Shown here piece by piece: positions 2,691 to 59,506 of a stretch of 64,000 nucleotides of DNA; position 1 is the first letter of the stretch, and every line of letters starts with the position of its first letter. Under the pieces are notes generated by a model. The model did not search any database, was not told the DNA's origin, and worked only from the letters and a program-made list of their open reading frames with translations. Source of the stretch: Deltaproteobacteria bacterium (GTDB taxonomy: Bacteria > BMS3Abin14); the NCBI GenBank assembly GCA_013151915.1, contig JAADHJ010000044.1, positions 67,029 to 131,028 of the forward strand, written 5' to 3'. The position numbers were made by a program, and so were the translations under genes.

Positions 2691-3680
2691 CTATATTAAT
2701 TTCCTTCTGCTTAAAAAAAGCAATATTAAAAGATACATACATCCTGTTATGATTATTATATCAATAAAATGGACCACAATAAATGCATAAATAAATATCC
2801 AAGCATCATGAATCAATCTGTCGATTAATTCAAAGTCAGGGCTTTTTAATTTTTTAACTTCATATTTAATTCCTTCTTGAGATATATTGACTTTCATATA
2901 ATGGTAAAAATAATGGGATGGGTCAGTTCCGGCTAATTCACCTCCAGCTCCTCCTGTGATAGTAAAAGGTGTATTCTTCCAATATCCTTTGTAATATCCA
3001 TGAATGTGCGAGCAAAATAACATTGAAACATGATATTTATCAAAAATATCATTTAACTGTCCTGCAAATGTCAAATCTTTCAAGCTGTGACCTTCTTCGT
3101 TTTCTCCTTGGCGTGGATCATATAATGGGACATGCATAAATACAAAGCGGTATTTATACGATTGTGCTTTTTGCAACTCGTTTTCTAACCAATCCAACTG
3201 CCATAAATCCAATCTTTCTTCATTTGCATCATCAAGGATGATGAAGTATGATTCACCAACCTTGAAGGAATAATAGAATCTTCCAAACATTGGATAGTAA
3301 TTAGCTCTTCCATCTTCGCGTAATTCATGATTGCCAATCGCTGTAAGGAAAGGTTTATCGGCTTTTTTAATCTGATTTATAAAAAATCTGAATTTTTCCT
3401 TTTCTCCGTCCTCGACTAAGTCTCCGATGTCGATGGCAAATATTATATCATCATGATTTAATTTGTTTATCAATTCATCAAATGTTGTTATTGAATTCTT
3501 ATTGTCGCCGAACACGGCAAAGCTATATGTATCGTTTGTTTTATCAATTTTTTTAATTTCATGATAATTCCAATCATTAACTTCAGGGAAGGTAAATATT
3601 GAATATAGTTTTATTGTTACTGAGAATATTAAAATCAATATTACAGCATAGCTTATATATTTATTAAAATATTTTTTCAT
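2691..3680 (-). CDS. Membrane-anchored calcineurin-like metallophosphoesterase
   Basis: MPP motifs are present (FAVFGDN, DIGDLVE, GNHE, HVPLY, SHIHGY). There are N- and C-terminal hydrophobic segments. The gene lies in a strongly AT-rich islet. Confidence 0.75.
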   Translation of the reverse strand: MKKYFNKYISYAVILILIFSVTIKLYSIFTFPEVNDWNYHEIKKIDKTNDTYSFAVFGDNKNSITTFDELINKLNHDDIIFAIDIGDLVEDGEKEKFRFFINQIKKADKPFLTAIGNHELREDGRANYYPMFGRFYYSFKVGESYFIILDDANEERLDLWQLDWLENELQKAQSYKYRFVFMHVPLYDPRQGENEEGHSLKDLTFAGQLNDIFDKYHVSMLFCSHIHGYYKGYWKNTPFTITGGAGGELAGTDPSHYFYHYMKVNISQEGIKYEVKKLKSPDFELIDRLIHDAWIFIYAFIVVHFIDIIIITGCMYLLILLFLSRRKLI

Positions 3681-3703
3681 TTATTCATTTCATTTATCAT
3701 TGT

Positions 3704-4300
3704 TTAGTCCTTTGGATAAAACTTTGATACAGTATCTCCAACCTCTTCAAGCCATCGGCTCCGTTGTTCAATTGTGCTTATTATAACCATTTTAAACATC
3801 TTTCGATGGAATCGTGTAACTCCGCAAAGACCAAATATGCAATTCTTCCATATAGTTTCTAAAGGATCACCAAAAACCTTCTCCTCTCTTTCAGGTAAAG
3901 TATTGGATGTATTGAATACAATAGCTGATTGTGCTTTCAATAATCCTTTTGGTACCCCTTCGCCCTCGTCGCCTTCTTGAAATTCGTATGCAACTCCAGG
4001 ACGAATTACTCTATCCATCCATCCTTTCAAGATTGCGGGCGGCTGACCCCACCAGTTTGGATGAACTATTATAATTCCATCAGAATCTTTCAATTCATTA
4101 CAATACTTCTCTATATACGGATGAATATCTGCATCTCTTTCCATCTCATTTGCAGGAAGAATTGGATCAAAACTTTCTTCATATAAATCATGAAAAAATA
4201 TATGATGGCCTTGCGATATAAGTGTCCTTAATGCAATATCGGCAATTGCGTGATTGAAGCTATTGCTGTCTGGATGCGCAAGTATTATTGATAATTTCAT
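3704..4300 (-). CDS. Flavodoxin-like fold NAD(P)H dehydrogenase (quinone) / Flavodoxin_2 family
   Basis: The N-terminus MKLSIILAHPDSNSFNHAIAD and overall length and pattern are typical of MdaB/KefF-like FMN reductases. The gene is AT-rich, like its neighbour. Confidence 0.65.
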   Translation of the reverse strand: MKLSIILAHPDSNSFNHAIADIALRTLISQGHHIFFHDLYEESFDPILPANEMERDADIHPYIEKYCNELKDSDGIIIVHPNWWGQPPAILKGWMDRVIRPGVAYEFQEGDEGEGVPKGLLKAQSAIVFNTSNTLPEREEKVFGDPLETIWKNCIFGLCGVTRFHRKMFKMVIISTIEQRSRWLEEVGDTVSKFYPKD

Positions 4301-4384
4301 CTTGTTTATCTCTAATCAATATTTACGAATCTCTCTTCGCACCGTGCAGCAGTATCCCGCGTCCGCTGCATTTGCCTTGTTCGA

Positions 4385-4999
4385 TCACCTCGATGCAACT
4401 GCCACTTTTATCCCAAAACCAATAAACAGCCATCCGCACACCTTCCGTGTGATTGACTGAATCGTGTGACTTTCTTGAAATGCCACGCCAACTCTGGATG
4501 AGACATGGCTGAGAATGCAGAGATATGTGAAGCTGATCGCCATGAAAACAAAGGTCATGCCGACATATGGAACAAGTAGTCCACCTTGAGCAGATTGAAT
4601 AAATACCGGAAAAAACGCCATAAAGAAAAATACGGCTTTGGGATTGAGCAGCGTAATCGTGAGAGCTCTCCGCAAAGACAAAGCAGAATCCTGAGGAACC
4701 ACTGACTTGTTTTTCCGATTGGCGAAGATTGACTGCAAGCCGAGAAAAATCAGATAGCCGGCACCAATCAGGCGAACAGCGTGAAAAAGTGATGGGTGTG
4801 TCATGAAAAGCGCAGAAATGCCGAGTAGAGAGAGCATGATCAAACATGTGTCACCGAGCATGATGCCGAACATGGCCATGCGTCCTGCTCTCGCACCTAC
4901 AGATCCGGCTGTCTTAGCCACGAAAACAGAGCCGGGACCGGGCGCAAGCACAACGGCTAACGAAGCAACGGTAAATCCTATCCAGTCAACATTTGTCAT
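4385..4999 (-). CDS. LysE/RhtB-family amino-acid exporter
   Basis: Six hydrophobic segments are predicted. The LysE-type N-terminus reads VDWIGFTVASLAVVLAPGPGSVFVA. The start is placed at the internal ATG (MTNVDW), not the extended ORF start. Confidence 0.75.
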   Translation of the reverse strand: MTNVDWIGFTVASLAVVLAPGPGSVFVAKTAGSVGARAGRMAMFGIMLGDTCLIMLSLLGISALFMTHPSLFHAVRLIGAGYLIFLGLQSIFANRKNKSVVPQDSALSLRRALTITLLNPKAVFFFMAFFPVFIQSAQGGLLVPYVGMTFVFMAISFTYLCILSHVSSRVGVAFQESHTIQSITRKVCGWLFIGFGIKVAVASR

Positions 5000-5323
5000 G
5001 TTTGTCTTCCTGATTGAACTGGTTATTCTACACAAAATCTCCGTTTGCCGGGGACGGACCACCTCCACAGCCACACATTATAACGTCCAGTGCCGGGTTA
5101 TCAAGCGGAACATGAAGAATCAGCTGATGATGAAGCTGTCGTACGATGGCGGTTTGTGTCTGATGGAACTGCTGCGAGGATCTCGACCATGAATATTTTT
5201 CAATTTTTCTCCTTGATTTCCTTCCCATTCGCTACTAAATAATTATTGAGGGCCTACTGGTGGGGCACCTTTGGCCATGCCCTGTGTCAGCCTTTAAGCG
5301 GAAAGCCTGGGGTGGAATATTCC

Positions 5324-6055
5324 ATGATGTTCAAGCCGATCAAAAAGACGAGGGTGTACGAGGAGATTGTCGCAAAAGTGACCGAGATGATTAACAATGG
5401 CATTCTCAAGGAGGGTGACCAGCTTCCGGGGGAGCGGGAGTTGGCGGAGACGTTCAGCGTAAGCAGATCGTCCCTTAGGGAAGCTCTCCGAACACTTGAG
5501 AGCCAGGGGTTTCTGGAAAGCCGGCAGGGAAACGGGACATACGTGGCCAGCCAGCCCGTCGAGCTGTTGGTGAAACCCTTTGCCTCTGTAATCCTTTCTG
5601 AAAAGGGTGCGCAGAGTGAACTGTTCGAGATGCGGCGGTTAATAGAACCTCAGGTCGCCTATCTGGCTGCCGAACGGGCCACATCTGAAGAGATTGACCA
5701 GATGGAAAAAATCCTTGCCGATCAGGAATCGCAGGTTGCCGGGGGAGGGACAGGCACGGATGTTGATAAGGCGTTTCATTACGCGTTGGCTGAGGCGACA
5801 AAAAACAGGATTCTTCTGCGTATGATGGACGCCGCCATGGAGTTTTTCAGCGAGAGCCGTGATAACTACCTGCAGATAAAGGGAAGGCCGGAAAAATCCC
5901 TTGTTCGCCACAAAGAGATGCTCAACGCCATTAAAGCGGGGGAGAAGAAGCTCGCGGCCGGTATAATGCGTGAGCACCTCGAGGATATCGAGAGCAGTCT
6001 GTTTGAGGTAAAAGACAGGAAAATCTCGGCGAAGTCCGTCGGTAAAAGCAACTGA
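5324..6055 (+). CDS. GntR-family transcriptional regulator, FadR/FCD subfamily (paralog 1)
   Basis: The N-terminal GntR HTH (ERELAETFSVSRSSLREALRTLESQGFLESRQGNGTYV) is followed by a C-terminal FCD-type helical domain. It is about 93% identical to the paralog at 44831..45565. Confidence 0.8.
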   Translation: MMFKPIKKTRVYEEIVAKVTEMINNGILKEGDQLPGERELAETFSVSRSSLREALRTLESQGFLESRQGNGTYVASQPVELLVKPFASVILSEKGAQSELFEMRRLIEPQVAYLAAERATSEEIDQMEKILADQESQVAGGGTGTDVDKAFHYALAEATKNRILLRMMDAAMEFFSESRDNYLQIKGRPEKSLVRHKEMLNAIKAGEKKLAAGIMREHLEDIESSLFEVKDRKISAKSVGKSN

Positions 6056-11454: not shown

Positions 11455-11512
11455 GTGCCTGGAACCCGACGTCCAAAGTTCAACGTTCAAGGTTCAACGT
11501 TCAAGGTTCAAC
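11455..11512 (+). repeat. GTTCAA-hexamer repeat element, copy A1 (CCTGGAACCCGACGTCCAAAGTTCAACGTTCAAGGTTCAACGTTCAAGGTTCAACC)
   Basis: Direct repeats of GTTCAAC/GTTCAAG. A related element occurs at 12964..13010 and in the MITE-like insert at 22840..23073. Confidence 0.6.
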
Positions 11513-11609: not shown

Positions 11610-12878
11610 TTATTTGTGCGACAATTCAAAAGAAAACTGCTTCTCGTAAAACTCTCTTGCAGCATTTTGTTTGTCAGCTACGTAGGAATAAATTTCTTCA
11701 TAATTCTCGAAAAGCAGGTTGACGATTCTGGTATCCAGAAGGCGATTATCAGAAAGCTGTTTAAGGATTTGAACTACACCGTCTTTGGACATACCTTTTC
11801 TATATGGTCGATCTTCAGTCAGTGCGGTAAATATATCTGCAACCATCATAATTCGCGCCCCTGTGCTCAGGTCGGCTGCCGTGCAGTGAAAAGGATATCC
11901 TGATCCATCAGGTCTTTCATGGTGATAAGCGGCCCATTCGGCAATCTGCTTAAGACCTCCGATGGTATTAATCACAGAATAGGTATAGTAGGTGTGTGAT
12001 TTCATAACCGCCATCTCTTCTTTTGTAAGTTTCCCGGGTTTATCCAGAATGCTGTTAGGAATCGCCAGTTTACCTATATCATGCAAATTCCCTGCAACCT
12101 CCATAAGCCCTATTTCTGTTGCCGTCAGGCCAAAAACTTTTGATAGCATAGAGGCAGACGCGGCAACACCTGAAGAATGTGTTGAAGTAAAACGAGAACG
12201 GAAATCAATTATATTCCGAAAAAGCTCCGATATTAAGGATATATCCGAAAAGTCTATTTCTGTTTTTCTGAAAGGTCCTTCGTTAAGGAGAAAAGAATAT
12301 AACCTGGGAGAAACCAGGTCCAACCAGAATTCTTCGCGATTAGAGATCGCCAGGAAAAGATCTATAGCCTGAGAATGAAAAAGAGAACCAGACAAAGCTT
12401 CTATTTCAAGGATAATATTTTCATGCTGATGAAGAATATAATGATCTCGTTTTATTTCACGCTCAAGATGATCGGCAAGAAATAATAATTGTGAATCGAA
12501 AACAAGAGGAGTTTCAATTGATTCTTTCCAATTTTGCCATTCGTTGTGATGACATCTGATTATTTTTGACGACTCCTTTAACCACGGTATGTTACTGAAC
12601 AAAATTTCACCGCGTATGCAATGACCTTCGGTGTTTTCGACTTCAGAATTTCGAAGGGAGATTTTTTCCTCCAATGAAAGAGCGCCGATATCATGGAGCA
12701 ATGCAGCTATGAAAATATTTTCCAATCTTTCATTTGTGAGACCTGCCGCTTTCCCCATTTCCCACACAACAAATGCCGTCCTTTGTTGATGTTGAATTAA
12801 TGAAGGATCGGCCAAATCCATGGCATCGGAGAGTGAAAGGATAAGATTGCCTAAATTGACTGTAATTTGACGCTGCAT
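11610..12878 (-). CDS. HD-GYP domain c-di-GMP phosphodiesterase-type protein (N-terminal degenerate HD + C-terminal HD-GYP)
   Basis: Motifs LHDIGAL, LHDIGKLAIP and HHERPDGSGYP are present. The gene is low-GC (about 40%) and flanked by direct GTTCAA repeats. Confidence 0.75.
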   Translation of the reverse strand: MQRQITVNLGNLILSLSDAMDLADPSLIQHQQRTAFVVWEMGKAAGLTNERLENIFIAALLHDIGALSLEEKISLRNSEVENTEGHCIRGEILFSNIPWLKESSKIIRCHHNEWQNWKESIETPLVFDSQLLFLADHLEREIKRDHYILHQHENIILEIEALSGSLFHSQAIDLFLAISNREEFWLDLVSPRLYSFLLNEGPFRKTEIDFSDISLISELFRNIIDFRSRFTSTHSSGVAASASMLSKVFGLTATEIGLMEVAGNLHDIGKLAIPNSILDKPGKLTKEEMAVMKSHTYYTYSVINTIGGLKQIAEWAAYHHERPDGSGYPFHCTAADLSTGARIMMVADIFTALTEDRPYRKGMSKDGVVQILKQLSDNRLLDTRIVNLLFENYEEIYSYVADKQNAAREFYEKQFSFELSHK

Positions 12879-12963: not shown

Positions 12964-13010
12964 CTGGAACCCAACGTTCAAAGTTCAAATAACAACGTTC
13001 AAAGTTCAAC
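12964..13010 (+). repeat. GTTCAA-hexamer repeat element, copy A2 (CCTGGAACCCAACGTTCAAAGTTCAAATAACAACGTTCAAAGTTCAACAGG)
   Basis: Same orientation and 5' end as copy A1. It is followed at 13040..13090 by an approximately 80%-identical remnant of the 3' end of the ICMT gene. Confidence 0.6.
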
Positions 13011-13282
13011 AGGAAAAAGAAAGTTCAATGCCGATGCCTGTTTTCAGCAGGTTTATCCTACTGCCAAAGAATAGCAGATGGCATCCGGTATGGCAATCTG
13101 ATCACCATTATCGTGGGTATTCGGCCTGGACTGTGGGTGGACTTTCAAAGGGTCCGAACTGTTTGAAAAGAAGGGTGCAAATAGAAGGCAAATAGGACTT
13201 GACCCCATTGGATTGAAGCGTAAAATTAAGACGCCGGAGCGTTTCAAAGATTTTCAATCGTTTAAAGACGGGATTTTTCTCT

Positions 13283-14347
13283 ATGAGAAGATGTTTTTCT
13301 ATAACGATCGTTTTTCTTGTTATCGTTGTCGGAGGGACATTATCTCCCGGCGCCGCGTGGGCGTATGAGATAACGCCCACGTTCGACTGCGAAGCAACGA
13401 TACGTGCATGGAAATTCGATCCCAAATACCGGGAATACGCCGCCACCTGCTCCTGCCCCAACCCCAACCCCCATGCGGCTCCGGTGTGCGATGACAATAC
13501 GCCCGCCTCCAGCGGGCCGGCTGCGCCATATTCCAGCGGGAACCCCAACGATCTTTCTTTCACCCTGATGCAAAGCTTTATGCAAGGCTTCTTCTCCAAC
13601 CTTTTTTCATCCTCCTCAGCCCCCGCTTCCAATGGACTTCCGAAAACGCCGCCGTCATCACTTAAACTTAACCCGCAGTACATGAAAGCCTGGCGGAAGC
13701 TTCAGGAAATGCGGCTCCCACCGGAAAAGGCGAAATTCATCATGGCGGAGGCGCTGAGGAGCCAGCGGCAGGCTCTTCGTCCCTACCGACCGGGTGATGT
13801 ATTACAGCAGGCTGCCTTGAGTCGCTGCCTATCCTTAAAAGCGGCGAAAAGGGCGTCTGGCGGTGGCGGCGGGAGTATGGAGGAGGCTTCATGGCTTCTG
13901 AGACAGGGTGCGTTTGCGCTTTCCGGTGATCTGGTGGAGGCCGCTCCCGGCTCTTGCCCGCCTGTAACTGAACCCCATTCAGGCGCGGTTCACGGTGCGA
14001 ACCATGTGGCGCCGCCTGCAGAACAGTTCAGGGCCGCTGTCCAACTCCTTGACCGGAAGAGGGGGACCTGGGAGAAGGCGAAAAAGTCTATCGGCGAGGC
14101 GAAGAAAAATCTGTCCGAATGGGAAGAAACCAGGGTTCGTATTTCGTCTGAGGTCGATGCTGCCGCGACGGAGGAGGAAAAAAAGGAAAAGAAGGCATCC
14201 CTGGAGGAAGTGATGAAAGCGCTCGCCGAGGCAAAGGAAGAACTCGCTGACGCGAATAACTTCGAGAAGAACAGCAGGAAGGATTTCATGGAAGCGGACA
14301 GGCGGGCTCAGGACACCGGTAATGCCATACTGCGGGAGCAGCGGTGA
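13283..14347 (+). CDS. Secreted hypothetical protein (Cys-rich N-domain, low-complexity linker, coiled-coil C-terminus)
   Basis: Signal peptide with six Cys in the first 70 mature residues, a Ser/Pro-rich linker, a GGGGGS stretch, and an E/K-rich helical tail. It overlaps the next gene. Confidence 0.5.
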   Translation: MRRCFSITIVFLVIVVGGTLSPGAAWAYEITPTFDCEATIRAWKFDPKYREYAATCSCPNPNPHAAPVCDDNTPASSGPAAPYSSGNPNDLSFTLMQSFMQGFFSNLFSSSSAPASNGLPKTPPSSLKLNPQYMKAWRKLQEMRLPPEKAKFIMAEALRSQRQALRPYRPGDVLQQAALSRCLSLKAAKRASGGGGGSMEEASWLLRQGAFALSGDLVEAAPGSCPPVTEPHSGAVHGANHVAPPAEQFRAAVQLLDRKRGTWEKAKKSIGEAKKNLSEWEETRVRISSEVDAAATEEEKKEKKASLEEVMKALAEAKEELADANNFEKNSRKDFMEADRRAQDTGNAILREQR

Positions 14348-15399
14348 GAACCCCAAAGATGATTGGGGAAAGGAGCGTATTTCCCCCCGGACGCGGGTGC
14401 CGGCCGGCCCTTTTCATCCTGGCCGCGTCATTGTCTGTCATCATCCTTCAGACATCCATCGCCTCAGGCGCAAACAACGGCAGGGCTGTCCCTTTCCTCG
14501 ACCTGTACCGCCCCGCCGGGAAACCCGGGATTCAGGTTGCCGCGTTCAAGTCTTTTGGATCCACGCGGATTCCATATGCTGACGCAACGGTGTTCGTCGT
14601 GTTACCTGACGGCGGGGCCTGGTTCGGAAAAGCGGACTTACTCGGCCGCTGCGAGATCCCGGCGCGGGTGATTCTACCCCATATTGAAACGAAGAGCGGC
14701 CCGGCGACCTTGCGGGTTGCCCTGTCGCTTAACGGGACCGTGGATGAGAAGAGGATCACCGTCTCCAAAAGCGAGCTTGTTCAGTATGCTGATAGCGCGG
14801 CCGACAGTAAGGTTGAAGAGGGGAACGCCCTGGCGCGGAAGGGTGGGCTTCGTGAGGCGATCTCCCTTTACAGGGAGGCGCTTGTCTTAAATCCCCTTTC
14901 CTCGCGGGCGGCCTACAACATCGCCTTCGCCTACGAGAAGCTGGGGATGATGCGCATGGCTGTCGCCGCCTACGCGGATTACCTGCTTCAATGCCAGGCA
15001 AAGGCGCAGGATCGGGAGGACGTCAAGAGGAGAGTCATCAATCTTTCCCGGGGGTTGACCCCCCCGCCCCCCGTGCTCGCGCGCATCTTCGGCATGCTTG
15101 ACAAGGCGTCCGCGCTTGCCGTTGGGGGAGATTCTTTTGGGGCCTTGCGGCTCTACGAGATAGCCCAGTCCGTCGCTCCCTGGTGGGCGGAACCCTACTA
15201 CGGTGCGGGAATCGTATACTACCACTTAGCGATCCAGAACTCTTTTTCCTATGCGGACAATGCCATCCGCTGTCTGAAGAATTTTCTGGCCGCCGTCCCC
15301 CCGGAGGACGCCAGGATTGAGGCCGTACGAAAGAGGGTAAAAGATCTGCTGACAATAAAGGAGGGATTAGATGCACCGAAAACAGTTTCTTCATACTAG
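14344..15399 (+). CDS. Secreted TPR-repeat protein
   Basis: Signal peptide plus TPR-like A/Y/L-rich repeats (AISLYREALVLNP, AAYNIAFAYEKLG, AEPYYGAGIVYYHLAI). The start may be GTG 14344 or ATG 14359. Confidence 0.55.
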   Translation: MRTPKMIGERSVFPPGRGCRPALFILAASLSVIILQTSIASGANNGRAVPFLDLYRPAGKPGIQVAAFKSFGSTRIPYADATVFVVLPDGGAWFGKADLLGRCEIPARVILPHIETKSGPATLRVALSLNGTVDEKRITVSKSELVQYADSAADSKVEEGNALARKGGLREAISLYREALVLNPLSSRAAYNIAFAYEKLGMMRMAVAAYADYLLQCQAKAQDREDVKRRVINLSRGLTPPPPVLARIFGMLDKASALAVGGDSFGALRLYEIAQSVAPWWAEPYYGAGIVYYHLAIQNSFSYADNAIRCLKNFLAAVPPEDARIEAVRKRVKDLLTIKEGLDAPKTVSSY

Positions 15400-16918
15400 C
15401 CTTCGGATGAGGACAACGGTTCTTTACGCCTTGACTCTGGCCATGGCGCTGTTTCTTGTCTCCTGCGCCGGGGGGCAGGTCAAGAAAAAGGAGCCGGTCT
15501 ACCGTTTAGGTGTGCAGATCTCTACGTTCGCTCCCCTGGTCGCGCATGATCTCGGTCTGCCCGAGGATATCAAAGGTGTGCTTGTCATGGCTGTGTCCCA
15601 GGGGTCGCCTGCGGCTACGGCGGGGGTCCGGTCCGGGGACGTCATCGCGGGAATAAAGATGCCTGACGGAAAACTGCAGGAAACGCCCGATACCACTGCC
15701 CTTTTAGAACTGCTCAAGAAGATGCCCATAGACCGGTCGGTAGCGCTTTCCATCCTGCGGGACGGAAAAACGATGGATATCTCCAGCATGCGGAGCACCA
15801 GGCAATTTTCCGGGTACGTTCAGCCCGGGTCCCGGCCCGAGCCGAGGACGATCAAGGTGGCGCCGGACGGATCCGGCGACTGCCGCACCATCACCGGGGC
15901 CATGCTTTCCGCCCGTCCGGGCGACACGATCCTGCTCTCTCGTGCTCCCGGTCCCGGCGGGGTGTACGGTTCCTTCCAGCTCTTCCTTGACAACCTGACC
16001 GTTCGCTCGGAAGACCCGGCGAACCGGGCGGTTGTGCAGCAGATCGTTGTGGATGGCCTTTCCGGAGTGAAGCTGGCCGACCTCGAGTTCCAGGTGAGCC
16101 AGCAGGGAAGCTGGCCCGGAGTGCATGTCCAGGGTTCCAAAGAGGTGACGGTGGAAAACTGCACCTTCTCAGGATATGTAAAAGCGGTCACCATCAGCGG
16201 TTCCAGAGAAGTCTTTATCAGTGGCAACCGTATGGAAGAGAATGCCCTGGGAATATTGGTGGATTCCGGTTCGGAATTTAAAATTAAGGATAACCTGATT
16301 ACCGGAACCGGGGTCCGGTGGGCCGACAGTAAGGGGATCTACATCTCAGGTTCCCGTGGAACGGTTTCGAATAATACGATCCTTTACTACAAGGTAGGGA
16401 CCGAAGCGTTTATAAATGACCTGAAGAACGGCGGGTATGGCGGGTATAATGTTACCGGCGTAGGTATCTACGTGGGCCAGGGTTCCAACGTTTCCATCGA
16501 GAACAACATCGTGTATGACAACAGCGCCGGGATATACGTGCAAGCGGGCGAAACAACCCACTACCGCGTCGAGTACAACGATATCTTTCAGAATACCATG
16601 GAGACCGGACAAACTGGAAGTAGAGACTTTGCGGATTACCTTACCGGCTCCGACTGGAACATATCAAAGGGGGTCAAGAAGAGGCATGAGTCGTCGCCCA
16701 TTCTGTCGCTTTCCATATGGGACCACAACTACTACGCGCCAAACCCCATGCCCCTTTCGCGGACTAACCTTTCCCGGGATCCGTTTTTCAACGACCCTGT
16801 GCGCGGCGACTATCGCCTGGCCGCCGACTCGCCGCTCGTCGGAAGGGGCAGAGGCGGAACCTACATCGGAGCTTTCCCGCCGATAGAGCAAAAGGCAGGG
16901 ACCGGGGAGTTCAAGTAA
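15371..16918 (+). CDS. Lipoprotein with PDZ domain and right-handed parallel beta-helix (pectate-lyase/NosD-like) repeats, paralog 1
   Basis: Lipobox LVSCAGG. PDZ region GVLVMAVSQGSPAATAGVRSGDVIAGI. The beta-helix N-cap is DGSGDCRTITGAM...PGDTILL, followed by repeated NNTI/ENNIVYDNSAGIYV-type rungs. Confidence 0.7.
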   Translation: MHRKQFLHTSLRMRTTVLYALTLAMALFLVSCAGGQVKKKEPVYRLGVQISTFAPLVAHDLGLPEDIKGVLVMAVSQGSPAATAGVRSGDVIAGIKMPDGKLQETPDTTALLELLKKMPIDRSVALSILRDGKTMDISSMRSTRQFSGYVQPGSRPEPRTIKVAPDGSGDCRTITGAMLSARPGDTILLSRAPGPGGVYGSFQLFLDNLTVRSEDPANRAVVQQIVVDGLSGVKLADLEFQVSQQGSWPGVHVQGSKEVTVENCTFSGYVKAVTISGSREVFISGNRMEENALGILVDSGSEFKIKDNLITGTGVRWADSKGIYISGSRGTVSNNTILYYKVGTEAFINDLKNGGYGGYNVTGVGIYVGQGSNVSIENNIVYDNSAGIYVQAGETTHYRVEYNDIFQNTMETGQTGSRDFADYLTGSDWNISKGVKKRHESSPILSLSIWDHNYYAPNPMPLSRTNLSRDPFFNDPVRGDYRLAADSPLVGRGRGGTYIGAFPPIEQKAGTGEFK

Positions 16919-17832
16919 TGACGGACGGAATGCAGGGGCGACCGCCGGGAACGCGGCGGATTGCCACTTCTGCAGCGCTTATTCTGATACTGGCGTTCTT
17001 CCTGCCGGCGGTTTCCTTCGCCGGGACGCAGGAAGGGTGGATCTCCGATTACATTGCGCGGCTGGTCAGGACACGGGATGAGGCCGGCCGGAAGGTCAGG
17101 GACACGGAACGAACAGTATCAAAGACGGACCGGCTCCTTTCCCTCGCCAGGGAAGCGAACAATACTCAGGCCGAAGCGTTGGCCGGAGAGGCCCGGACCA
17201 TTGCTCTCGCCGCCAGGGAGAAGTACAGGCGTGCCCTGGACAGGTCTGAAGCGGGCATCAGGATGGCCCGTTCTTATTTGGAGAAGTCCGACGCCGATGC
17301 CGGCTATGCTCGGAATACGGGAGTATTTTTTCGTATGGGTACAGTGGATGTTCGACGGGGCGGCACACAGGTCTGGAACCCACCCGGAGAAGGCGCGGTG
17401 GTCCTGGCCCCCGGCGACTCGGTGCGTACCGGTTCCGACGGTCGGGTCGAGCTGCGGGTGATGGCCGACGGCTCACGGATAGATGTGGCTCCAAGCACCA
17501 CCTTGAAAGTGATTAAGGACGCTATAAGGCTTGATCTGGGAAAGGTTCTTCTCAGGATCGCAAAGGGTATTAACCGAAAATTGATACGCTTCAGGGTGAA
17601 AACCCCCGTGGCGGTGTGCGGGGTGCGGGGGACCGAGTTCGCCGTCCATACGGAGCCTGACGGCCGGACGGTGGTTTCCGTTCTCGAAGGGAACGTTGAG
17701 ATAACCAGTCTGAATGGCGGAGAGCCGGTTATCCTCAAAGCGGGGCAGGAATTGGTCATTTCCTCGGACCACCGCCCCTTGGTCCCCCGGAAATTCGACC
17801 TCGCAGAAATCAGACGCGGTTTTGAAATGTGA
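16918..17832 (+). CDS. Secreted FecR-domain protein
   Basis: Signal peptide plus a FecR-like beta-sandwich region (LAPGDSVRTGSDGRVELRV.DGSRIDVAPST.LKV...VKTPVAVCGVRGTEFAV). The start overlaps the upstream stop (TAATG). Confidence 0.65.
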   Translation: MTDGMQGRPPGTRRIATSAALILILAFFLPAVSFAGTQEGWISDYIARLVRTRDEAGRKVRDTERTVSKTDRLLSLAREANNTQAEALAGEARTIALAAREKYRRALDRSEAGIRMARSYLEKSDADAGYARNTGVFFRMGTVDVRRGGTQVWNPPGEGAVVLAPGDSVRTGSDGRVELRVMADGSRIDVAPSTTLKVIKDAIRLDLGKVLLRIAKGINRKLIRFRVKTPVAVCGVRGTEFAVHTEPDGRTVVSVLEGNVEITSLNGGEPVILKAGQELVISSDHRPLVPRKFDLAEIRRGFEM

Positions 17833-17966
17833 AAATAAGGGGACCTTTGAAAGCAACGGCGGGCGCCGGGACTGGAATGTGAAACCCTTGTGAAACATGT
17901 ATGTAAGTATGGGAATATAGGTGTAGGAACGCAGCACAATAACCGTGCTAACCATAAGGGAGGGTA

Positions 17967-19478
17967 TTGATGGGTCGAAAACAGTATTTTCATACCAGTC
18001 TTCGGATGAGGACAATGGTTCTTTACGCCGTGGTTCCGGCCATGGCGCTGTTTCTTGTCTCCTGCGCCGGGGGGCAGGTCAAGAAAAAGGAAGCGGGTTA
18101 TCGTATCGGCGTGAACATGGGTACCCTCAATCCCGCATTGGCGCAGGATCTCGGTTTGCCGGGGAACCTGAAAGGTGTGGTTGTCGTGGCGGTGTCCCAG
18201 GGGTCGCCCGCGGCTGCGGCGGGGATCAGACCAGGGGATGTTGTCCTGGGGATAAAAACGGCGGACGGAAAGCTGCAGGAAACGCCCGACACCAATGTAT
18301 TCGTAGAGTTATTGAAAAAGATGCCGATAGATCGCCCGGTGAAATTCTCCGTGCTCCGCGGCGGAAAAACGATGGATATTTCCAGCACGCAGGGCACCGG
18401 GCAATTTTCCGGGTACGTTCAGCCCGGGTCCCGGCCCGAGCCGAGGACCATCAAGGTGTCGCCGGACGGATCCGGCGACTGCCGCACCATCACCGGGGCC
18501 ATGCTTTCCGCCCGCCCGGGCGACACGATCCTGCTCTCTCGTGCTCCCGGTCCCGGCGGGGTGTACGGTCCCTTCCATGTTTTCCTGGACAACCTGACCG
18601 TTCGCTCGGAAGACTTGGCGAACCGGGCGGTTCTGCAGCAGATTCTTTTAAAGGGTCTTACCGGTGTGAAATTGAGCGGCCTCGATTTTAGGGGGAGTCC
18701 GCAGGGAAGTTGGCCGGGGGTGCATATCAACAACTGCAACAGGGTCACGGTGGAAAACTGCACCTTCTCCGGGTACTTCAGGGCGGTGGGCATCCGCGCC
18801 TCCCAGGGGGTTTCCGTTACGGGCAGCCGTATGAAGAAAAACGCTCAGGGGATCGTTGCTTCTCAAACGGATTTTAAAATTAACGGCAATCTTATTGTCG
18901 GGGCACAAAGCGGGGGGCACGACAAGCAGGGGATCTGGATCTCAGGTTCCCGTGGAACGGTTTCGAATAATACGATCCTTTACTACAAGGTAGGGACCGA
19001 AACGTTTATAAATGGCCTGAAGAACAGCAGGTATAATATTACCGGCGTAGGTATCTACGTGGGCCAGGGTTCCAACGTTTCCATCGAGAACAATATCGTG
19101 TATGACAACAGCGCCGGGATATACGTGCAAGCGGGCGAAACAACCCACTACCGCGTCGAGTACAACGACATCTTTCAGAATACCACTAAGACCGGACAGA
19201 CGGAAGATGGAGATTACGCGGATTACCTTACCGGGTCGAACTGGAACTTCTCCAAGGGGACCAGGGTCATAAAGAAATCGTCTCCCCTCCTTACGGTTTA
19301 CGGATGGGAGCATAACTACTTTGCTCCCATCCCCGTGCCCCGCTCACGGACCAACCTTTCCCAGGCTCCGTTCTTCAACGACCCGACCCTGGACGATTAT
19401 CGGCTGGCCGCCGACTCTCCCCTCGTCGGGAGGGGCAGAGGCGGGACCTATATTGGAGCTTTGCTTTCCCGCCGATAG
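17967..19478 (+). CDS. Lipoprotein with PDZ domain and beta-helix repeats, paralog 2
   Basis: Same architecture as 15371..16918. The 5' roughly 300 bp and 3' roughly 500 bp are nearly identical in nucleotides to paralog 1, and the middle has diverged. The C-terminus is truncated by a 5-bp GCTTT duplication relative to paralog 1. Confidence 0.7.
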   Translation: MMGRKQYFHTSLRMRTMVLYAVVPAMALFLVSCAGGQVKKKEAGYRIGVNMGTLNPALAQDLGLPGNLKGVVVVAVSQGSPAAAAGIRPGDVVLGIKTADGKLQETPDTNVFVELLKKMPIDRPVKFSVLRGGKTMDISSTQGTGQFSGYVQPGSRPEPRTIKVSPDGSGDCRTITGAMLSARPGDTILLSRAPGPGGVYGPFHVFLDNLTVRSEDLANRAVLQQILLKGLTGVKLSGLDFRGSPQGSWPGVHINNCNRVTVENCTFSGYFRAVGIRASQGVSVTGSRMKKNAQGIVASQTDFKINGNLIVGAQSGGHDKQGIWISGSRGTVSNNTILYYKVGTETFINGLKNSRYNITGVGIYVGQGSNVSIENNIVYDNSAGIYVQAGETTHYRVEYNDIFQNTTKTGQTEDGDYADYLTGSNWNFSKGTRVIKKSSPLLTVYGWEHNYFAPIPVPRSRTNLSQAPFFNDPTLDDYRLAADSPLVGRGRGGTYIGALLSRR

Positions 19479-19527
19479 AGCAAAAGGCAGGGACCGGGGA
19501 GTTCAAGTAATGACGAACGGGATGCGC

Positions 19528-19610
19528 GACTCTGGACCCTTCGACAGGCTCAGGGCAGGCTCTGGACTCTGGACTCAGGACACTGGACTCTGGACTTCAG
19601 GTTCCGTACC
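19528..19610. repeat. CTGGACT heptamer tract plus GGTTCCG...CGGAACC hairpin, copy D1
   Basis: Reads ctggact ctggact caggaca ctggact ctggact then GGTTCCGtacccCGGAACC. It lies exactly at the break of homology with the paralog 1 locus. Confidence 0.5.
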
Positions 19611-20513: not shown

Positions 20514-20693
20514 GGTAGGGTCGTAAAAAGTCCATGAATGGCTTTTTACTCCACGGAAAGCGAAAAGTGTCATTTTCACTTTCCTTACAAATCAACAACC
20601 TGTCCCGTAAATCGATGACCTGCGGGACAAGTCATTGATTTGGGCGCCCCTTAATGGGCGCGATGATGATTTCTTACGAAGTCATCATCTTTA
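20514..20693 (+). repeat. 180-bp multi-hairpin intergenic repeat, unit B copy 1
   Basis: Five consecutive imperfect palindromes: AAAAAGTCCAT/ATGGCTTTTT, GGAAAG..CTTTCC, CAAATCAACAACCTGTCCCG..CGGGACAAGTCATTGATTTG, GCGCCC..GGGCGC and GATGA...TCATC. It is tandem with copy 2. Confidence 0.7.
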
Positions 20694-20880
20694 GGTAGGG
20701 TCGTAAAAAGTCCGTTAATGGCCTTTTTTCTCAACGGAAAGCGAAAAGTGTCATTTTCACTTTCCTCACAAATCAAGAACCTGTCCCGCAAATCGATGAC
20801 CTGCGGGACAAGTCATTGATTTGGGCGCCCCTTAGCGGGCGCATTGATGACTTTTTACCAAGTCATACGAAGTCATCAAT
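20694..20880 (+). repeat. 180-bp multi-hairpin intergenic repeat, unit B copy 2 (about 90% identical to copy 1)
   Basis: Direct tandem duplicate of 20514..20693. It ends in GTTGATGACTTTTTACC..AAGTCATCAAT. Confidence 0.7.
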
Positions 20881-22834: not shown

Positions 22835-22839
22835 ATACG

Positions 22840-23073
22840 TTCCACGTTCAAGGTTTAACGCCCAACGGGGAAAGCACCTTCAACGTTCAACAATGATAGG
22901 GTCGCAAAAAGTCCATTTATGGCTTTTTGCTCTACCCATCAGTGGGCGCATTGATGACTTTTTGCGATGGTGTCAACCATTGAACTCTTGAACCTTTGAA
23001 CCATTGAACCTTTGAACCATTGAACTCTTGAACCATTGAACTCTTGAACCATTGAACCTTGAACGTGGAACTC
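22840..23073. mobile_element. MITE-like element with about 20-bp terminal inverted repeats (TTCCACGTTCAAGGTT / AACCTTGAACGTGGAA)
   Basis: Perfect terminal inverted repeats lie at 22840-22859 and 23054-23073. The interior carries GTTCAA hexamer arrays (about 14 copies) and a deletion derivative of unit B (GGGTCGCAAAAAGTCCATTTATGGCTTTTTGC...GGGCGCATTGATGACTTTTTGCGATGGTGTCAACC). It is inserted between gatA and gatB. Confidence 0.6.
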
Positions 23074-24608: not shown

Positions 24609-24648
24609 TTCTGGACTCTGGACCTTGGACTCTGGACTTTGGGTTCCG
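24609..24648. repeat. CTGGACT heptamer tract, copy D2
   Basis: Reads ctggact ctggacc ttggact ctggact ttgGGTTCCGgcatCGGAAAC. It has the same composition as 19528..19610. Confidence 0.5.
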
Positions 24649-44816: not shown

Positions 44817-44830
44817 GGGAAGAATATTCC

Positions 44831-45565
44831 ATGTTGGTCAAACCCATTAAGAAGACGAAGGTGTACGAGGAGATCGTCGCAAAAGTGACCGAGATGATCA
44901 GCAGCGGCACCCTCAAGGAGGGTGATCAGCTTCCGGGGGAACGGGAGTTGGCGGAGACGTTCAGCGTAAGCAGATCGTCCCTTCGGGAGGCTCTCCGAAC
45001 GCTTGAGAGCCAGGGGTTTCTGGAAAGCCGGCGGGGAAACGGGACATACGTGGCCAGCCAGCCCGTCGAGCTGCTGGTGAAGCCCTTTGCATCTGTAATC
45101 CTTTCCGAAAAGGATGTGCAGAGTGAACTGTTCGAGGTACGGAGGTTAATAGAACCTCAGGTCGCCTATCTGGCTGCCGAACGGGCCACATCTGAAGAGA
45201 TTGACCAGATGGAAGAGATCCTTGCCGATCAGGAATCGCAGGTTGCCGGGGGAGGGACAGGCACGGATGTTGATAGGGCGTTTCATTACGCGTTGGCTGA
45301 GGCGACAAAAAACAGGATTCTTCTGCGTATGATGGACGCCGCCATGGAGTTTTTCAGCGAGAGTCGTGATAACTACCTGCAGATAAAGGGAAGGCCGGAA
45401 AAATCCCTTGTTCGCCACAAAGAGATGGTCAATGCCATGAAAGCGGGGAATAAGGAGCTTGCGGCCGGCATAATGCGTGAGCATCTGGAAGATATTGAAA
45501 ACAGTCTGATCTCGGTCAACAGAAAGGAGGAACTTGATAAAACCGAACAGAAAGGGGGGATATAG
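44831..45565 (+). CDS. GntR-family transcriptional regulator, FadR/FCD subfamily (paralog 2)
   Basis: About 93% amino-acid and nucleotide identity to 5324..6055 over roughly 715 bp. It lies directly upstream of the por operon. Confidence 0.8.
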   Translation: MLVKPIKKTKVYEEIVAKVTEMISSGTLKEGDQLPGERELAETFSVSRSSLREALRTLESQGFLESRRGNGTYVASQPVELLVKPFASVILSEKDVQSELFEVRRLIEPQVAYLAAERATSEEIDQMEEILADQESQVAGGGTGTDVDRAFHYALAEATKNRILLRMMDAAMEFFSESRDNYLQIKGRPEKSLVRHKEMVNAMKAGNKELAAGIMREHLEDIENSLISVNRKEELDKTEQKGGI

Positions 45566-59294: not shown

Positions 59295-59347
59295 CCTCCC
59301 TGAAACATTGTTGAGCGGTGATAAACCACGAAAAGCTCCATTATTGA

Positions 59348-59506
59348 TATGGTCGTAAAAAGTCCATTAATGGCTTTTTACTTTACGGAAAGCGAAAAGT
59401 GTCATTTTCACTTTCCTCACAAATCAACAACTTGAACTTGCGCTGCAAGTCATTGATTTGCGCGCCCCGGAAGTGGGCGCGTTGACGACTTCGTAAAAAG
59501 TCATCA
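59348..59506 (+). repeat. 180-bp multi-hairpin repeat, unit B copy 3, immediately 5' of ppdK
   Basis: Matches copies 1 and 2 except that the central hairpin is replaced by a shorter one with compensatory changes (CAAATCAACAACTTG..CAAGTCATTGATTTG). It ends in the repeat-C palindrome. Confidence 0.7.

Follow-up and report, generated by a model that had tools for sequence, protein, structure and literature searches.

The five genes at positions 13283-19478 of the window (the whole 64,000-nucleotide stretch of DNA analyzed here) are best explained as a cassette accompanied by an old paralog of its lipoprotein gene, which has been overwritten patch-wise by its neighbor through gene conversion, a reading to which we give a probability of about 0.7. 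Judging from sequence, the cassette appears to encode four exported envelope proteins and to be restricted to one small clade of uncultured bacteria from sediment. It consists of a coiled-coil protein without known family (g1), a TPR-like protein (g2), a PDZ plus beta-helix lipoprotein (g3), and a FecR-domain protein (g4); the additional lipoprotein copy is g5. All five ORFs are on the plus strand, and ORF calling shows overlapping stops and starts in the first four, by 4 nt (g1/g2), 29 nt (g2/g3) and 1 nt (g3/g4). The sequence-only reading had described these overlaps correctly and, with them, a co-directional cluster for secreted proteins, which is supported here as a translationally coupled set encoding exported proteins. 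Its "operon of five," however, is better divided into a four-gene cassette that is conserved and an extra lipoprotein copy that varies between lineages. For a sigma-70-like promoter of g1, the best upstream candidate, from a consensus scan only, is TTGACC-16-TAAAAT (13199..13226, plus strand, 10/12), and the surrounding region (13092-13290) is 93-95% identical to that of a close relative, L056. Since scanning the 137-nt spacer before g5 gave neither a terminator nor a promoter, it is plausible that g5 is co-transcribed with the cassette.

The predicted PDZ, beta-helix, FecR, and TPR domains agree with Pfam, which finds PDZ plus Beta_helix/NosD twice and places the TPR models just under cut-off. 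The first gene, g1 (13283..14347), encodes an exported 354-aa protein for which Pfam and NCBIfam searches gave no family, and whose relatives amount to only nine clusters among 5.8e9, every one from the same clade. After its signal peptide comes a small N-terminal module in which four cysteines are invariant; a low-complexity linker then leads to a helical core that is conserved and to an antiparallel coiled-coil hairpin at the C terminus. The AF2 model is confident only for the helices at residues 245-353, a helical hairpin with pLDDT above 90. The earlier label "Cys-rich coiled-coil" is thus half right: the C-terminal coiled coil is there, but the invariant residues include just six cysteines (C36, C56, C58, C69, C182, and C225) in 354 residues. 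The second gene, g2 (14344..15399), encodes an exported 351-aa TPR-like protein with an N-terminal beta-rich region. It matches several TPR models with E values of 5e-6 to 1e-3 (TPR_11 5e-6, TPR_9 2e-5), each slightly below cut-off, and has orthologs in every cassette (51-92% identical). The last ~55 nt of g2 hold the Shine-Dalgarno sequence and start of g3.

As for the lipoproteins, g3 (15371..16918, 515 aa) displays a lipobox (LVSC), an HtrA-type PDZ domain (residues ~43-140), a linker, a right-handed parallel beta-helix (residues ~160-500), and a conserved tail ending in GTGEFK, with Pfam matches to Beta_helix (1.4e-18), NosD (7e-15), and PDZ_2 (1.3e-7). The second copy, g5 (17970..19478), has the same architecture (Beta_helix 8e-15, PDZ_2 1.9e-9), shares with g3 the lipobox LFLVSC/AGG and 73% amino-acid identity overall, and has a reading frame that is intact except for a 3'-terminal frameshift. 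The g5 ORF could begin at 17967 or 17970. The ATG at 17970, which sits behind the Shine-Dalgarno sequence AAGGGAGGG, is the more likely start, giving 502 aa, the length of NCBI protein P0003. The assertion that this is no textbook family stands, since the architecture is rare and uncharacterized: full-length PDZ plus beta-helix relatives form ~12 clusters among 5.8 billion and occur in ~7 of 185,579 species genomes, and no solved structure joins a PDZ domain to such a beta-helix (TMq <= 0.33). The PDZ moiety matches the chain profiles of DegP, DegQ, and AlgW (1e-17 to 1e-12), superposes on the PDZ1 domains of the HtrA family (DegP/DegQ/DegS/AlgW) at 1.3-2.0 Å over ~100 residues with 26-29% identity, and shares their envelope location. 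In contrast to HtrA proteins, the lipoprotein has no trypsin-like protease domain, is lipidated, and carries its PDZ at the N terminus followed by a beta-helix; it scores 49 bits with the NCBIfam degP_htrA_DO model vs a cut-off of 416.

The second copy is part of a larger duplication, seen as a single blastn HSP between 15347-16933 and 17946-19525 (81% identity over ~1600 nt) that begins at the lipoprotein ribosome-binding site, which lies within the TPR tail, and ends shortly after the start codon of the FecR gene. This bears out the earlier claim that the 1.6-kb unit takes in the tail of the TPR gene and the start of the FecR gene. By alignment, the TPR-gene remnant at its 5' edge (17946..17969, plus strand, LTIREGIDGSKTVFSY) has lost its stop codon and provides the Shine-Dalgarno sequence of g5, while the g4 start remnant (19510..19525, plus strand, ATGACGAACGGGATGC) is followed by a tandem of the heptamer CTCTGGACT (19560-19596) and then by the convergent purU stop. 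Close to the end of g5, a 5-bp tandem duplication of GCTTT (19458..19467, plus strand, GCTTTGCTTT) shifts the frame and turns the tail FPPIEQKAGTGEFK into LLSRR*; deleting 5 nt makes the g5 tail identical to that of g3. The duplication had been recognized from the sequence, but its effect is not the loss of the last 10 aa: the last 14 residues are replaced by five, a net loss of nine. From this frameshifted tail, g5 may be decaying.

Along the two lipoprotein genes, four near-identical tracts are separated by three blocks in which the copies diverge, namely the PDZ, the central helix, and the C-terminal insert (16600-16810). In g3 coordinates, the tracts are 15371-15492 (signal peptide and lipobox), 15763..16015 (PDZ-helix linker and helix N-cap, 97-98% identical to g5 18362-18614), 16343..16580 (a set of conserved helix rungs from GSRGTVSNNTILYY to EYNDIFQN, 95-100% identical to g5 18939-19167 with one 9-nt indel), and 16871..16933 (the 3' tail, equivalent to 19463-19525), all on the plus strand. 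The last, where the duplicated unit ends on its 3' side, comprises the lipoprotein tail, the stop codon, the g4 Shine-Dalgarno sequence, and the first five g4 codons, with a 53-nt exact match (16871-16923 and 19463-19515). A mosaic had been proposed before and is real, but it has four near-identical tracts rather than two. Contrary to the earlier reading, the stretch from GSRGTVSNNTILYY to the end is not near-identical, since the divergent insert intervenes, and the linker/N-cap tract had been overlooked. Concordant runs span 17 and 26 polymorphic sites in the second tract and 34, 19, and 23 in the third (P<1e-4), where the longest exact match is 74 nt; for the longest runs (34, 26, and 23 sites), permutation gives P<1e-4, 4e-4, and 2e-3. 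The mosaic is far beyond chance.

Synonymous sites and trees show that gene conversion between old paralogs accounts for this mosaic. In the homogenized tracts, dS between g3 and g5 is 0.04-0.07 (0.068 in the second tract and 0.036 in the third), vs 0.44-0.91 between g3 and its ortholog in the same tracts (0.44 and 0.91, respectively, for the L001 lineage), while in the divergent blocks it reaches 0.77-1.03 with dN/dS of 0.26-0.33. Bootstrapped trees conflict accordingly: the converted blocks unite g3 and g5 at 100%, whereas the divergent blocks unite g3 and L001 at 99% to the exclusion of g5, which falls outside g3, L001, and L056 with a bootstrap of 0.89. The gene-conversion reading offered earlier is supported by these trees together with the block identities, the dS contrast, and the permutation. 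As a separate observation, the divergent blocks place g3 with L001 and not with L056, its genome-wise closest relative, which indicates further exchange events. If the tandem duplication were recent and the PDZ, the C-terminal insert, and the central face of the beta-helix had since come under diversifying selection, amino-acid differences would also be concentrated in three blocks, as is seen, and one variable loop (residues ~300-325, GTGVRWADSK vs GAQSGGHDKQ) has 11 nonsynonymous and no synonymous differences in a 30-codon window. However, that sole hint is non-significant and lies at a tract border, and no 30-codon window of g3 vs g5 has a dN/dS convincingly above 1. Moreover, dS in the divergent blocks is near saturation and equals or exceeds that between g3 and its orthologs (0.47-0.84), dN/dS there is low, and the group of g3 with its orthologs excludes g5 (89-99% bootstrap). 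A recent duplication with diversifying selection, the latter also suggested for the helix face by the sequence-only reading, is therefore largely refuted and very improbable.

The g1-TPR-lipoprotein(-FecR) cassette was found in seven related lineages and nowhere else, the relatives compared all being metagenomic contigs of uncertain taxonomy. The order g1-g2-g3 holds in all seven where observable, with identical stop/start overlaps in L001, L002, and L060, and g4 adjoins these genes in five lineages, is inverted in another, and is missing from the seventh; distant PDZ-beta-helix genes have no cassette partner. Among close relatives, the locus is structurally unstable and fast-evolving. L001 has a single lipoprotein copy, and two independent assemblies (L054 and L059) carry an out-of-frame 575-nt helix deletion between imperfect 16-nt repeats. 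In L056, whose flanks are 93-98% identical, a degenerate start of the FecR gene comes after the lipoprotein stop and is joined to TPR tail sequence of at least 70 nt, a tandem junction that differs from that of the window and at which the contig ends. While seven flank genes have dS of 0.04-0.14 and dN of 0.007-0.037, g1 and the lipoprotein have 0.39-0.45 and 0.14-0.15. The locus diverges from its relatives 3-4-fold (dS) and about 10-fold (dN) faster than its flanks do, but the TPR body matches the flanks in conservation. Because no single step converts the order in the window (g3-FecR-g5) into that in L056 (lipoprotein-junction-?) or the reverse, we only infer that the two share an ancestral duplication.

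These comparisons bear on two other origins. It is unlikely, if worth weighing, that g5 came from the homologous cassette of a diverged relative, through lateral transfer or recombination, and that g3 later converted part of it. In favor of this, g5 is flanked by what remains of a homologous cassette (TPR tail and FecR start), L001 has DUF805 and isochorismatase genes where the second copy would be and an IS4-like transposase adjoining its cassette, and the cassette gene trees are at odds with flank relatedness. Nevertheless, the tandem junction in L056 is most simply explained by an old duplication that is shared, mobile-element genes are absent from around g5 in the window, and no donor lineage nearer to g5 was found, the best divergent-block match being 0.77 (L056). 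That the mosaic is a metagenome assembly artifact, from strain mixing or repeat collapse, is scarcely credible. The window does come from a MAG contig, and in related loci the assemblies stop at this repeat, as does the L056 contig, but the longest exact shared run is just 74 nt, the tracts contain scattered single mismatches and a 9-nt indel, the flanks are unique and the frames intact in both copies, and related rearrangements occur in independent data sets. Gene conversion within bacterial genomes is known for paralogs such as tufA/tufB and the Neisseria opa and pilE/pilS genes, which g3 and g5 resemble in their patchwise homogenization of synonymous sites and tree incongruence. In contrast to these, g3 and g5 lie 2.6 kb apart in one putative transcription unit of an uncultured lineage, their tracts coincide with the most conserved framework segments, and there is no sign of programmed variation, with neither silent cassettes nor a recombinase.

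The remaining cassette protein, g4 (16918..17832, plus strand, 304 aa), is exported or N-terminally anchored and combines a helical/coiled-coil segment with a FecR domain (PF04773, 1.2e-15, residues 167-261). It has 259 representative clusters of relatives at E<1e-10, many being full-length ~300-aa matches, and a PDB search gave no sequence relative. The Pfam match could suggest a FecR-type anti-sigma or trans-envelope signaling protein, with the cassette as a cell-surface signaling system. This is most improbable: only 16 residues precede the hydrophobic signal/anchor segment, so that, in contrast to FecR and PupR, there is no cytoplasmic anti-sigma domain; no ECF sigma factor or TonB-dependent transducer is encoded within ~12 kb or in any related locus, and g4 is inverted or missing in some cassettes. 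The lack of a sigma/anti-sigma partner had been pointed out before. Membership in the FecR anti-sigma family itself is effectively refuted by a score of 21 bits vs the NCBIfam cut-off of 385. Like the Leptospira proteins LipL45, Lsa33, and Lsa19, g4 is exported and has the periplasmic FecR domain but no sigma-binding domain. Its best NCBIfam matches, Lsa33 and LipL45, are nonetheless far below cut-off (42 vs 420 and 40 vs 350), and unlike these lipoproteins it has a signal peptide/anchor, no lipobox, and an additional ~130-residue helical segment.

Tentatively, the g1-g4 proteins might form a periplasmic or outer-membrane-associated complex in which the lipoprotein PDZ would dock a protein C terminus, with the beta-helix displayed as a binding surface for a glycan or protein target. 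Across the family, E401 is the only invariant acid/base residue in the helix body, so neither an enzymatic nor a binding activity can be assigned. The pairing of AlgK with AlgG or AlgL in alginate export offers an analogy for a periplasmic polysaccharide-modifying scaffold, in which the TPR protein would be paired with a beta-helix lyase or epimerase and the exopolysaccharide made elsewhere. We consider this doubtful, since no glycosyltransferase, synthase, or exporter occurs within ~12 kb in the window or any related locus, and the helix, although of the pectate-lyase-like type (PbH1/CASH), differs from PL6/PL31 alginate lyases, AlgE/AlgG epimerases, and pectate lyases in having no identifiable conserved catalytic constellation or invariant catalytic-type residues. 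Furthermore, the fold match is generic to all such helices, including the non-enzymes NosD and PfbA. With the NosD NCBIfam model the lipoprotein scores 37 bits vs a cut-off of 300, and neither nosZ nor nosFY is near the cassette. The family could instead act on proteins, as an HtrA-like adaptor for envelope quality control or protease regulation whose helix would dock as in NosD. In keeping with this, the PDZ is specifically of HtrA/DegP/DegQ/AlgW type, NosD is the only PDB beta-helix detectable by sequence, one member of the family carries a fused trypsin-like protease, others have a second PDZ or a FlgO domain, and a serpin directly adjoins the gene in two independent distant loci, one of which also has an S58 peptidase. 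This support is by association, and the serpin adjacency concerns just 2 of ~8 distinct distant loci and never the cassette clade, whose cassette has no protease gene; an adaptor is therefore an equally doubtful role.

We propose that the two lipoprotein copies diverged before the sampled cassette lineages split. Several short gene-conversion events have since homogenized four tracts, and the PDZ, central helix, and C-terminal insert remained deeply divergent under purifying selection. The two divergent helices could provide two specificities on a shared, homogenized framework. In evolutionary terms the locus makes a neat case, but it is not a novel type of system.

The locus comprises five co-directional ORFs. 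A four-gene cassette, which encodes an exported coiled-coil protein (g1, 13283-14347), a TPR-like protein (g2, 14344-15399), a lipoprotein (g3, 15371-16918), and a FecR-domain protein (g4, 16918-17832), is followed by a second lipoprotein gene (g5, 17967/17970-19478). Successive cassette ORFs overlap by 4 nt (g1/g2), 29 nt (g2/g3), and 1 nt (g3/g4), while g5 is preceded by a 137-nt spacer in which a simple scan found neither terminator nor promoter. The best-scoring candidate promoter lies upstream of g1 (13199-13226). The C-terminal tail of g2 (KEG...PKTVSSY; 15345-15399) is dual-coded with the Shine-Dalgarno sequence and start of g3, and that of g3 (GTGEFK; 16895-16918) with those of g4. Since the latter tail is kept in two related loci with no downstream FecR gene (L002 and L057), it is constrained at the protein level also. 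The cassette is flanked upstream by HisKA, GntR, hemerythrin, aminotransferase, PEMT, and HD-GYP genes and downstream by purU, gatCAB, an IF-2B-like gene, glnE, a class IV aminotransferase gene, and polA.

All five proteins start with a positively charged n-region followed by a hydrophobic segment. In the g3 and g5 products, the signal peptide ends in the lipobox LFLVSC, which conforms to the pattern used to define lipoproteins, [LVI][ASTVI][GAS]C. The variants LTAC, LSAC, and LAGC occur in clade orthologs of g3, and distant family members have no lipobox. HMM searches strengthen the domain assignments made by the sequence-only reading. Pfam models matched g3 (Beta_helix, 1.4e-18; NosD, 7e-15; PDZ_2, 1.3e-7), g5 (Beta_helix, 8e-15; PDZ_2, 1.9e-9), and residues 167-261 of g4 (FecR, PF04773, 1.2e-15; 58 bits vs. 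a cut-off of 24), and several TPR models matched g2 with E values of 5e-6 to 1e-3, each slightly below its Pfam cut-off. As for g1, it has no Pfam match, and its AF2 model (pLDDT 61) is confident only for a C-terminal antiparallel coiled-coil hairpin (245-353); six of its cysteines are invariant. NCBIfam matches are all subthreshold and domain-level only across the cassette proteins: degP_htrA_DO (49 bits vs. a cut-off of 416, confined to the PDZ), LipL45 (40 vs. 350), Lsa33 (42 vs. 420), and, for g4, the FecR equivalog PRK09774 (21 vs. 385).

The AF2 model of the g3 lipoprotein is confident (pLDDT 85, pTM 0.83) and exhibits a right-handed parallel β-helix. Its PDZ superposes on PDZ1 of DegQ/DegP with deviations of 1.3-2.0 Å at 26-29% identity, and the family profile of the lipoprotein matches DegP, DegQ, and AlgW chains at 1e-17 to 1e-12, but no solved structure spans PDZ and β-helix together (TMq ≤ 0.33). 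In HtrA/DegP, a trypsin-like protease domain with a His-Asp-Ser triad lies N-terminal to the PDZ; g3 and g5 are devoid of it and match neither Trypsin_2 nor Trypsin, so we rejected their assignment as serine endopeptidases of this type. NosD shares both fold and repeats with the lipoprotein, but its nosF, nosY, nosZ, and nosL neighbors are missing here. This identity was also rejected, with 37 bits vs. a cut-off of 300 for the NosD family TIGR04247 in NCBIfam and no nos genes in the flanks. Polysaccharide lyases and epimerases (PL1/PL6/PL9/PL31, AlgG/AlgE) have the fold in common with the lipoprotein. On their helix face, these enzymes carry a conserved catalytic base and Ca-binding acidic residues, or the DPHD motif. 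What 12 family members of the lipoprotein share without exception are Asn/Gly ladder positions and N- and C-cap motifs; E401 is the sole invariant charged residue of the helix body, and the DPHD motif is absent, a pattern that speaks neither for nor against an active site.

Our preferred reading, to which we assign about three chances in ten, is that the g1-g4 proteins form an envelope complex in which the lipoprotein PDZ would bind the C terminus of a protein and the helix would serve as a binding surface. The β-helix fold matches would also agree with a scaffold analogous to AlgK/AlgG that modifies a polysaccharide, which we find doubtful because polysaccharide genes are absent nearby and no conserved catalytic residues are apparent. 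Also unlikely, in our judgment, is an adaptor directed at a protein or protease, for which several observations nevertheless speak. The PDZ is of HtrA type, the closest helix by sequence is NosD, and other family members carry C-terminal modules, namely a trypsin-like protease domain (Trypsin_2, in one fused member), FlgO, or a second PDZ. Moreover, serpin genes adjoin the PDZ-β-helix gene in two independent distant loci of Bacillota (L010, 6179-7408; L063, 5201-6679 and 9010-10278), one of which has an S58 peptidase too.

The g4 protein consists of 16 residues (4-16 in orthologs), a hydrophobic segment, ∼130 helical residues, and the FecR domain, and no solved structure is related to it in sequence. 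This architecture is common, being shared by 259 representative clusters at E<1e-10, of which many match at full length (∼300 aa). FecR-type anti-sigma factors, in contrast, have a cytoplasmic anti-sigma domain of ∼80-90 aa followed by a single transmembrane helix, and their genes adjoin those for an ECF sigma factor and a TonB-dependent transducer. Neither kind of partner gene lies within ∼12 kb of the cassette in the window or in the related loci L001, L054, L056, L002, and L060, which bears out the remark that the FecR gene lacks a sigma partner. Lacking both the cytoplasmic domain and these neighbors, g4 was rejected as an anti-sigma FecR. An anti-phage defense system was likewise rejected, since PADLOC returned 0 matches for all five proteins.

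The cassette is conserved within a restricted set of lineages. Full-length relatives of the lipoprotein amount to ∼12 clusters out of 5.8 billion, relatives were found in ∼7 of 185,579 species genomes, and only a handful of metagenome contigs encode full-length ones, a scan adding just two further cassette fragments. A protein identical to g3 exists at NCBI, and an exact-sequence look-up in the contig index gave no match. As for g1, its relatives form 9 clusters only, every one from the same clade. When g1, g2, and g4 were used as tblastn queries against all 84 fetched loci, the order g1-g2-lipoprotein was found in each cassette lineage where it is visible (the window, L001, L056, L054/L059, L057/L058/L007, L060, and L002/L062). 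The position of the FecR gene varies. It lies 3′ of the lipoprotein gene in the window, L001, L054/L059, L009, and L060, is inverted in L002, and gives way to a Fic gene in L057. The stop/start overlaps in L001, L002, and L060 are the same as in the window. L001, a close relative, has the four-gene cassette with purU, gatC, and gatA downstream as in the window. An IS4-like DDE transposase gene (L001, 3-1091) directly adjoins the L001 cassette upstream, where the window, L054, and L056 have the HD-GYP neighborhood, and DUF805 and isochorismatase genes occupy the position of g5. Distant PDZ-β-helix genes (29-37% identity), which come from Bacillota, Acidobacteriota, Chitinophagales, and bioreactor metagenomes, have no g1, g2, or g4 partners detectable by tblastn in the fetched loci. 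Literature searches returned no system that combines a FecR domain, β-helix, PDZ, and lipoprotein, nor one retrieved via FecR and LipL45. Both the four-gene cassette and the PDZ-β-helix family are thus undescribed in the searched literature.

The second lipoprotein gene belongs to a longer duplication, seen as a single blastn HSP of ∼1,600 nt (15347-16933 vs. 17946-19525, 81% identity). As suspected from the sequence, its 5′ edge falls within the tail of the TPR gene and its 3′ edge 16 nt into the FecR gene, and remnants of both were found in the second copy. The TPR-tail remnant (17946-17969), which reads LTIREGIDGSKTVFSY and no longer has a stop codon, provides the Shine-Dalgarno sequence of g5 (AAGGGAGGG); the FecR-start remnant, ATGACGAACGGGATGC, lies at 19510. 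With both remnants at its edges, the duplicated unit corresponds to a lipoprotein gene that carries its own ribosome-binding site at one end and, at the other, the ribosome-binding site and start belonging to the following gene. At the 3′ end of g5 (19458-19467), a tandem duplication of GCTTT had been said to truncate the protein. The frameshift is indeed there, and it alters the tail such that FPPIEQKAGTGEFK turns into LLSRR*; once 5 nt are taken out, the g5 tail equals that of g3 exactly.

Sliding-window identity along g3/g5 (in g3 coordinates) reveals a genuine mosaic, although it comprises four near-identical tracts rather than the two first recognized, the last of which had been wrongly extended to the gene end. 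The tracts lie at 15371-15492 (∼90% identity), 15763-16015 (97-98%), 16343-16580 (95-100%), and 16871-16933 (containing a 53-nt exact match). They alternate with three divergent blocks, corresponding to the PDZ (62-82%), the central helix (57-74%), and a C-terminal insert (60-80%). An assembly artifact was judged an unlikely source of this pattern, since the longest exact g3/g5 run is 74 nt and the tracts hold scattered mismatches and a 9-nt indel, which argues against assembly collapse.

Paralogous genes are well known to undergo gene conversion, and comparison with L001, which has a single lipoprotein gene, and further orthologs identifies this process as the source of the mosaic. The identity of g3 with its orthologs (0.79-0.80) exceeds that with g5 (0.70) in the divergent blocks, whereas in the tracts g3-g5 identity is 0.96 and that of g3 with orthologs 0.78-0.82. 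Consistently, Nei-Gojobori dS within tracts is 0.036-0.068 for g3-g5 and 0.44-0.91 for g3-L001, and the three longest concordant runs have P<1e-4, 4e-4, and 2e-3 in a Sawyer-type permutation of polymorphic sites. The trees conflict as well: NJ bootstrap support on converted columns is 1.00 for (g3,g5), while divergent columns give 0.99 for (g3,L001) and 0.89 for (g3,L001,L056), with g5 outside. The other explanation offered for the mosaic, diversifying selection on the helix face, was rejected at the block and window levels, because g3-g5 dN/dS in the divergent blocks is 0.26-0.33 (dS 0.77-1.03) and no 30-codon window along g3/g5 has an omega convincingly >1. The one hint of such selection, a variable loop around aa 300-325 in which 11 nonsynonymous changes stand against 0 synonymous ones, is not significant and sits at a tract border. 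Taken together, the dS, permutation, and tree results establish that g3 and g5 are old paralogs, both under purifying selection, whose most conserved framework segments have been homogenized repeatedly by short conversion tracts.

The locus is also unstable. In L056, whose flanks are 93-98% identical to those of the window, the lipoprotein stop is followed by a degenerate FecR start that has lost its ATG and runs directly into at least 70 nt of the TPR-gene tail, after which the contig ends; this is a tandem lipoprotein junction with no intervening FecR gene. One ancestral [TPR tail-lipoprotein-FecR] duplication with different deletions per lineage would be compatible with both L056 and the window. 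In L054, a marine-metagenome relative (12310-12325), and L059 (3930-3949), which are independent assemblies, a 575-nt out-of-frame deletion flanked by imperfect 16-nt direct repeats (GAAGACC.GG..AACCGG) removes the lipoprotein helix, so that an ORF of 240 aa with the PDZ alone remains. When the window is compared with L056, seven flank genes have a dS of 0.04-0.14 and a dN of 0.007-0.037, compared with 0.39 and 0.14 for g1, 0.45 and 0.15 for the lipoprotein gene, and 0.28 and 0.04 for the TPR gene. At 100-nt resolution, identity is 93-100% in the HD-GYP gene, promoter region, and TPR body and falls to 65-75% in the N-terminal half of g1 and to 73-89% in the lipoprotein gene. This acceleration of g1 and the lipoprotein gene, together with the copy-number and truncation polymorphism, is what might be expected of exposed envelope components.

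Repeats and further paralogy were observed elsewhere in the window. Intergenic tandem repeats with a 7-nt period, AACGTTCAA(A/G)GTTCAA, occur at 11468-11511, 12973-13009, 22836-22890, and 23052-23067 (11 matches vs. 0.46 expected). Two exact 16-mers, 21 nt apart, lie upstream of g1, in a segment that is indel-rich relative to L056. A second heptamer family (CTCTGGACT...; 19560-19596 and 24609-24645; 8 matches vs. 0.5 expected) has one copy directly adjoining the FecR-start remnant, where the duplicated unit ends on its 3′ side. Between purU and gatC, a multi-hairpin element of ∼173 nt is present in tandem (20514-20685 and 20694-20866, 91%), with a third copy 39 kb away (59344-59506, 80%). It is kept in relatives (L001, 6191-6356; L056, 4852-5151; L009, 2931-3088), and some stem changes between them look compensatory. 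It may represent a small RNA or an element of REP/MITE type; Rfam gave 0 matches in the whole window at gathering thresholds and a chance miRNA match only in an E-value scan of the purU-gatC spacer. A 737-nt duplication of a GntR/FCD regulator gene (5286-6020 vs. 44792-45528, 92% identity) constitutes a second paralog pair. Finally, L054 and L056, although otherwise 92-98% identical, lack a ∼2.5-kb segment of the window (2691-5074) with genes for a metallophosphoesterase, a flavodoxin-like FMN reductase, and a LysE exporter, so this segment is an indel among closely related genomes.

Every part of the locus is of a known kind, as is the evolutionary process. A more speculative extension of the envelope complex, which we regard as improbable, is that, in a Desulfobacterota-like lineage, the cassette encodes a new complex of the envelope or surface, and that phage, predators, or competitors would exert antagonistic selection on its exposed parts, namely the lipoprotein helix and the N-terminal half of g1. 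The tandem array would then be a mechanism of variation, in which conversion, deletions, and copy-number changes would keep the framework homogenized and swap specificity-determining PDZ/helix segments. The locus provides a clean, quantified case, from an uncultured anaerobe, of old tandem paralogs homogenized in short tracts by gene conversion, and it defines a small four-gene envelope cassette, not described before, whose core is a very rare fusion of an HtrA-type PDZ to a pectate-lyase-like β-helix, with no characterized member. Since distant members are associated with serpins and proteases, a link of PDZ-β-helix proteins to envelope proteolysis suggests itself and can be tested; if the variable surface complex is real, it would offer a handle on the envelope biology and phage/host interactions of sulfidic-sediment bacteria.
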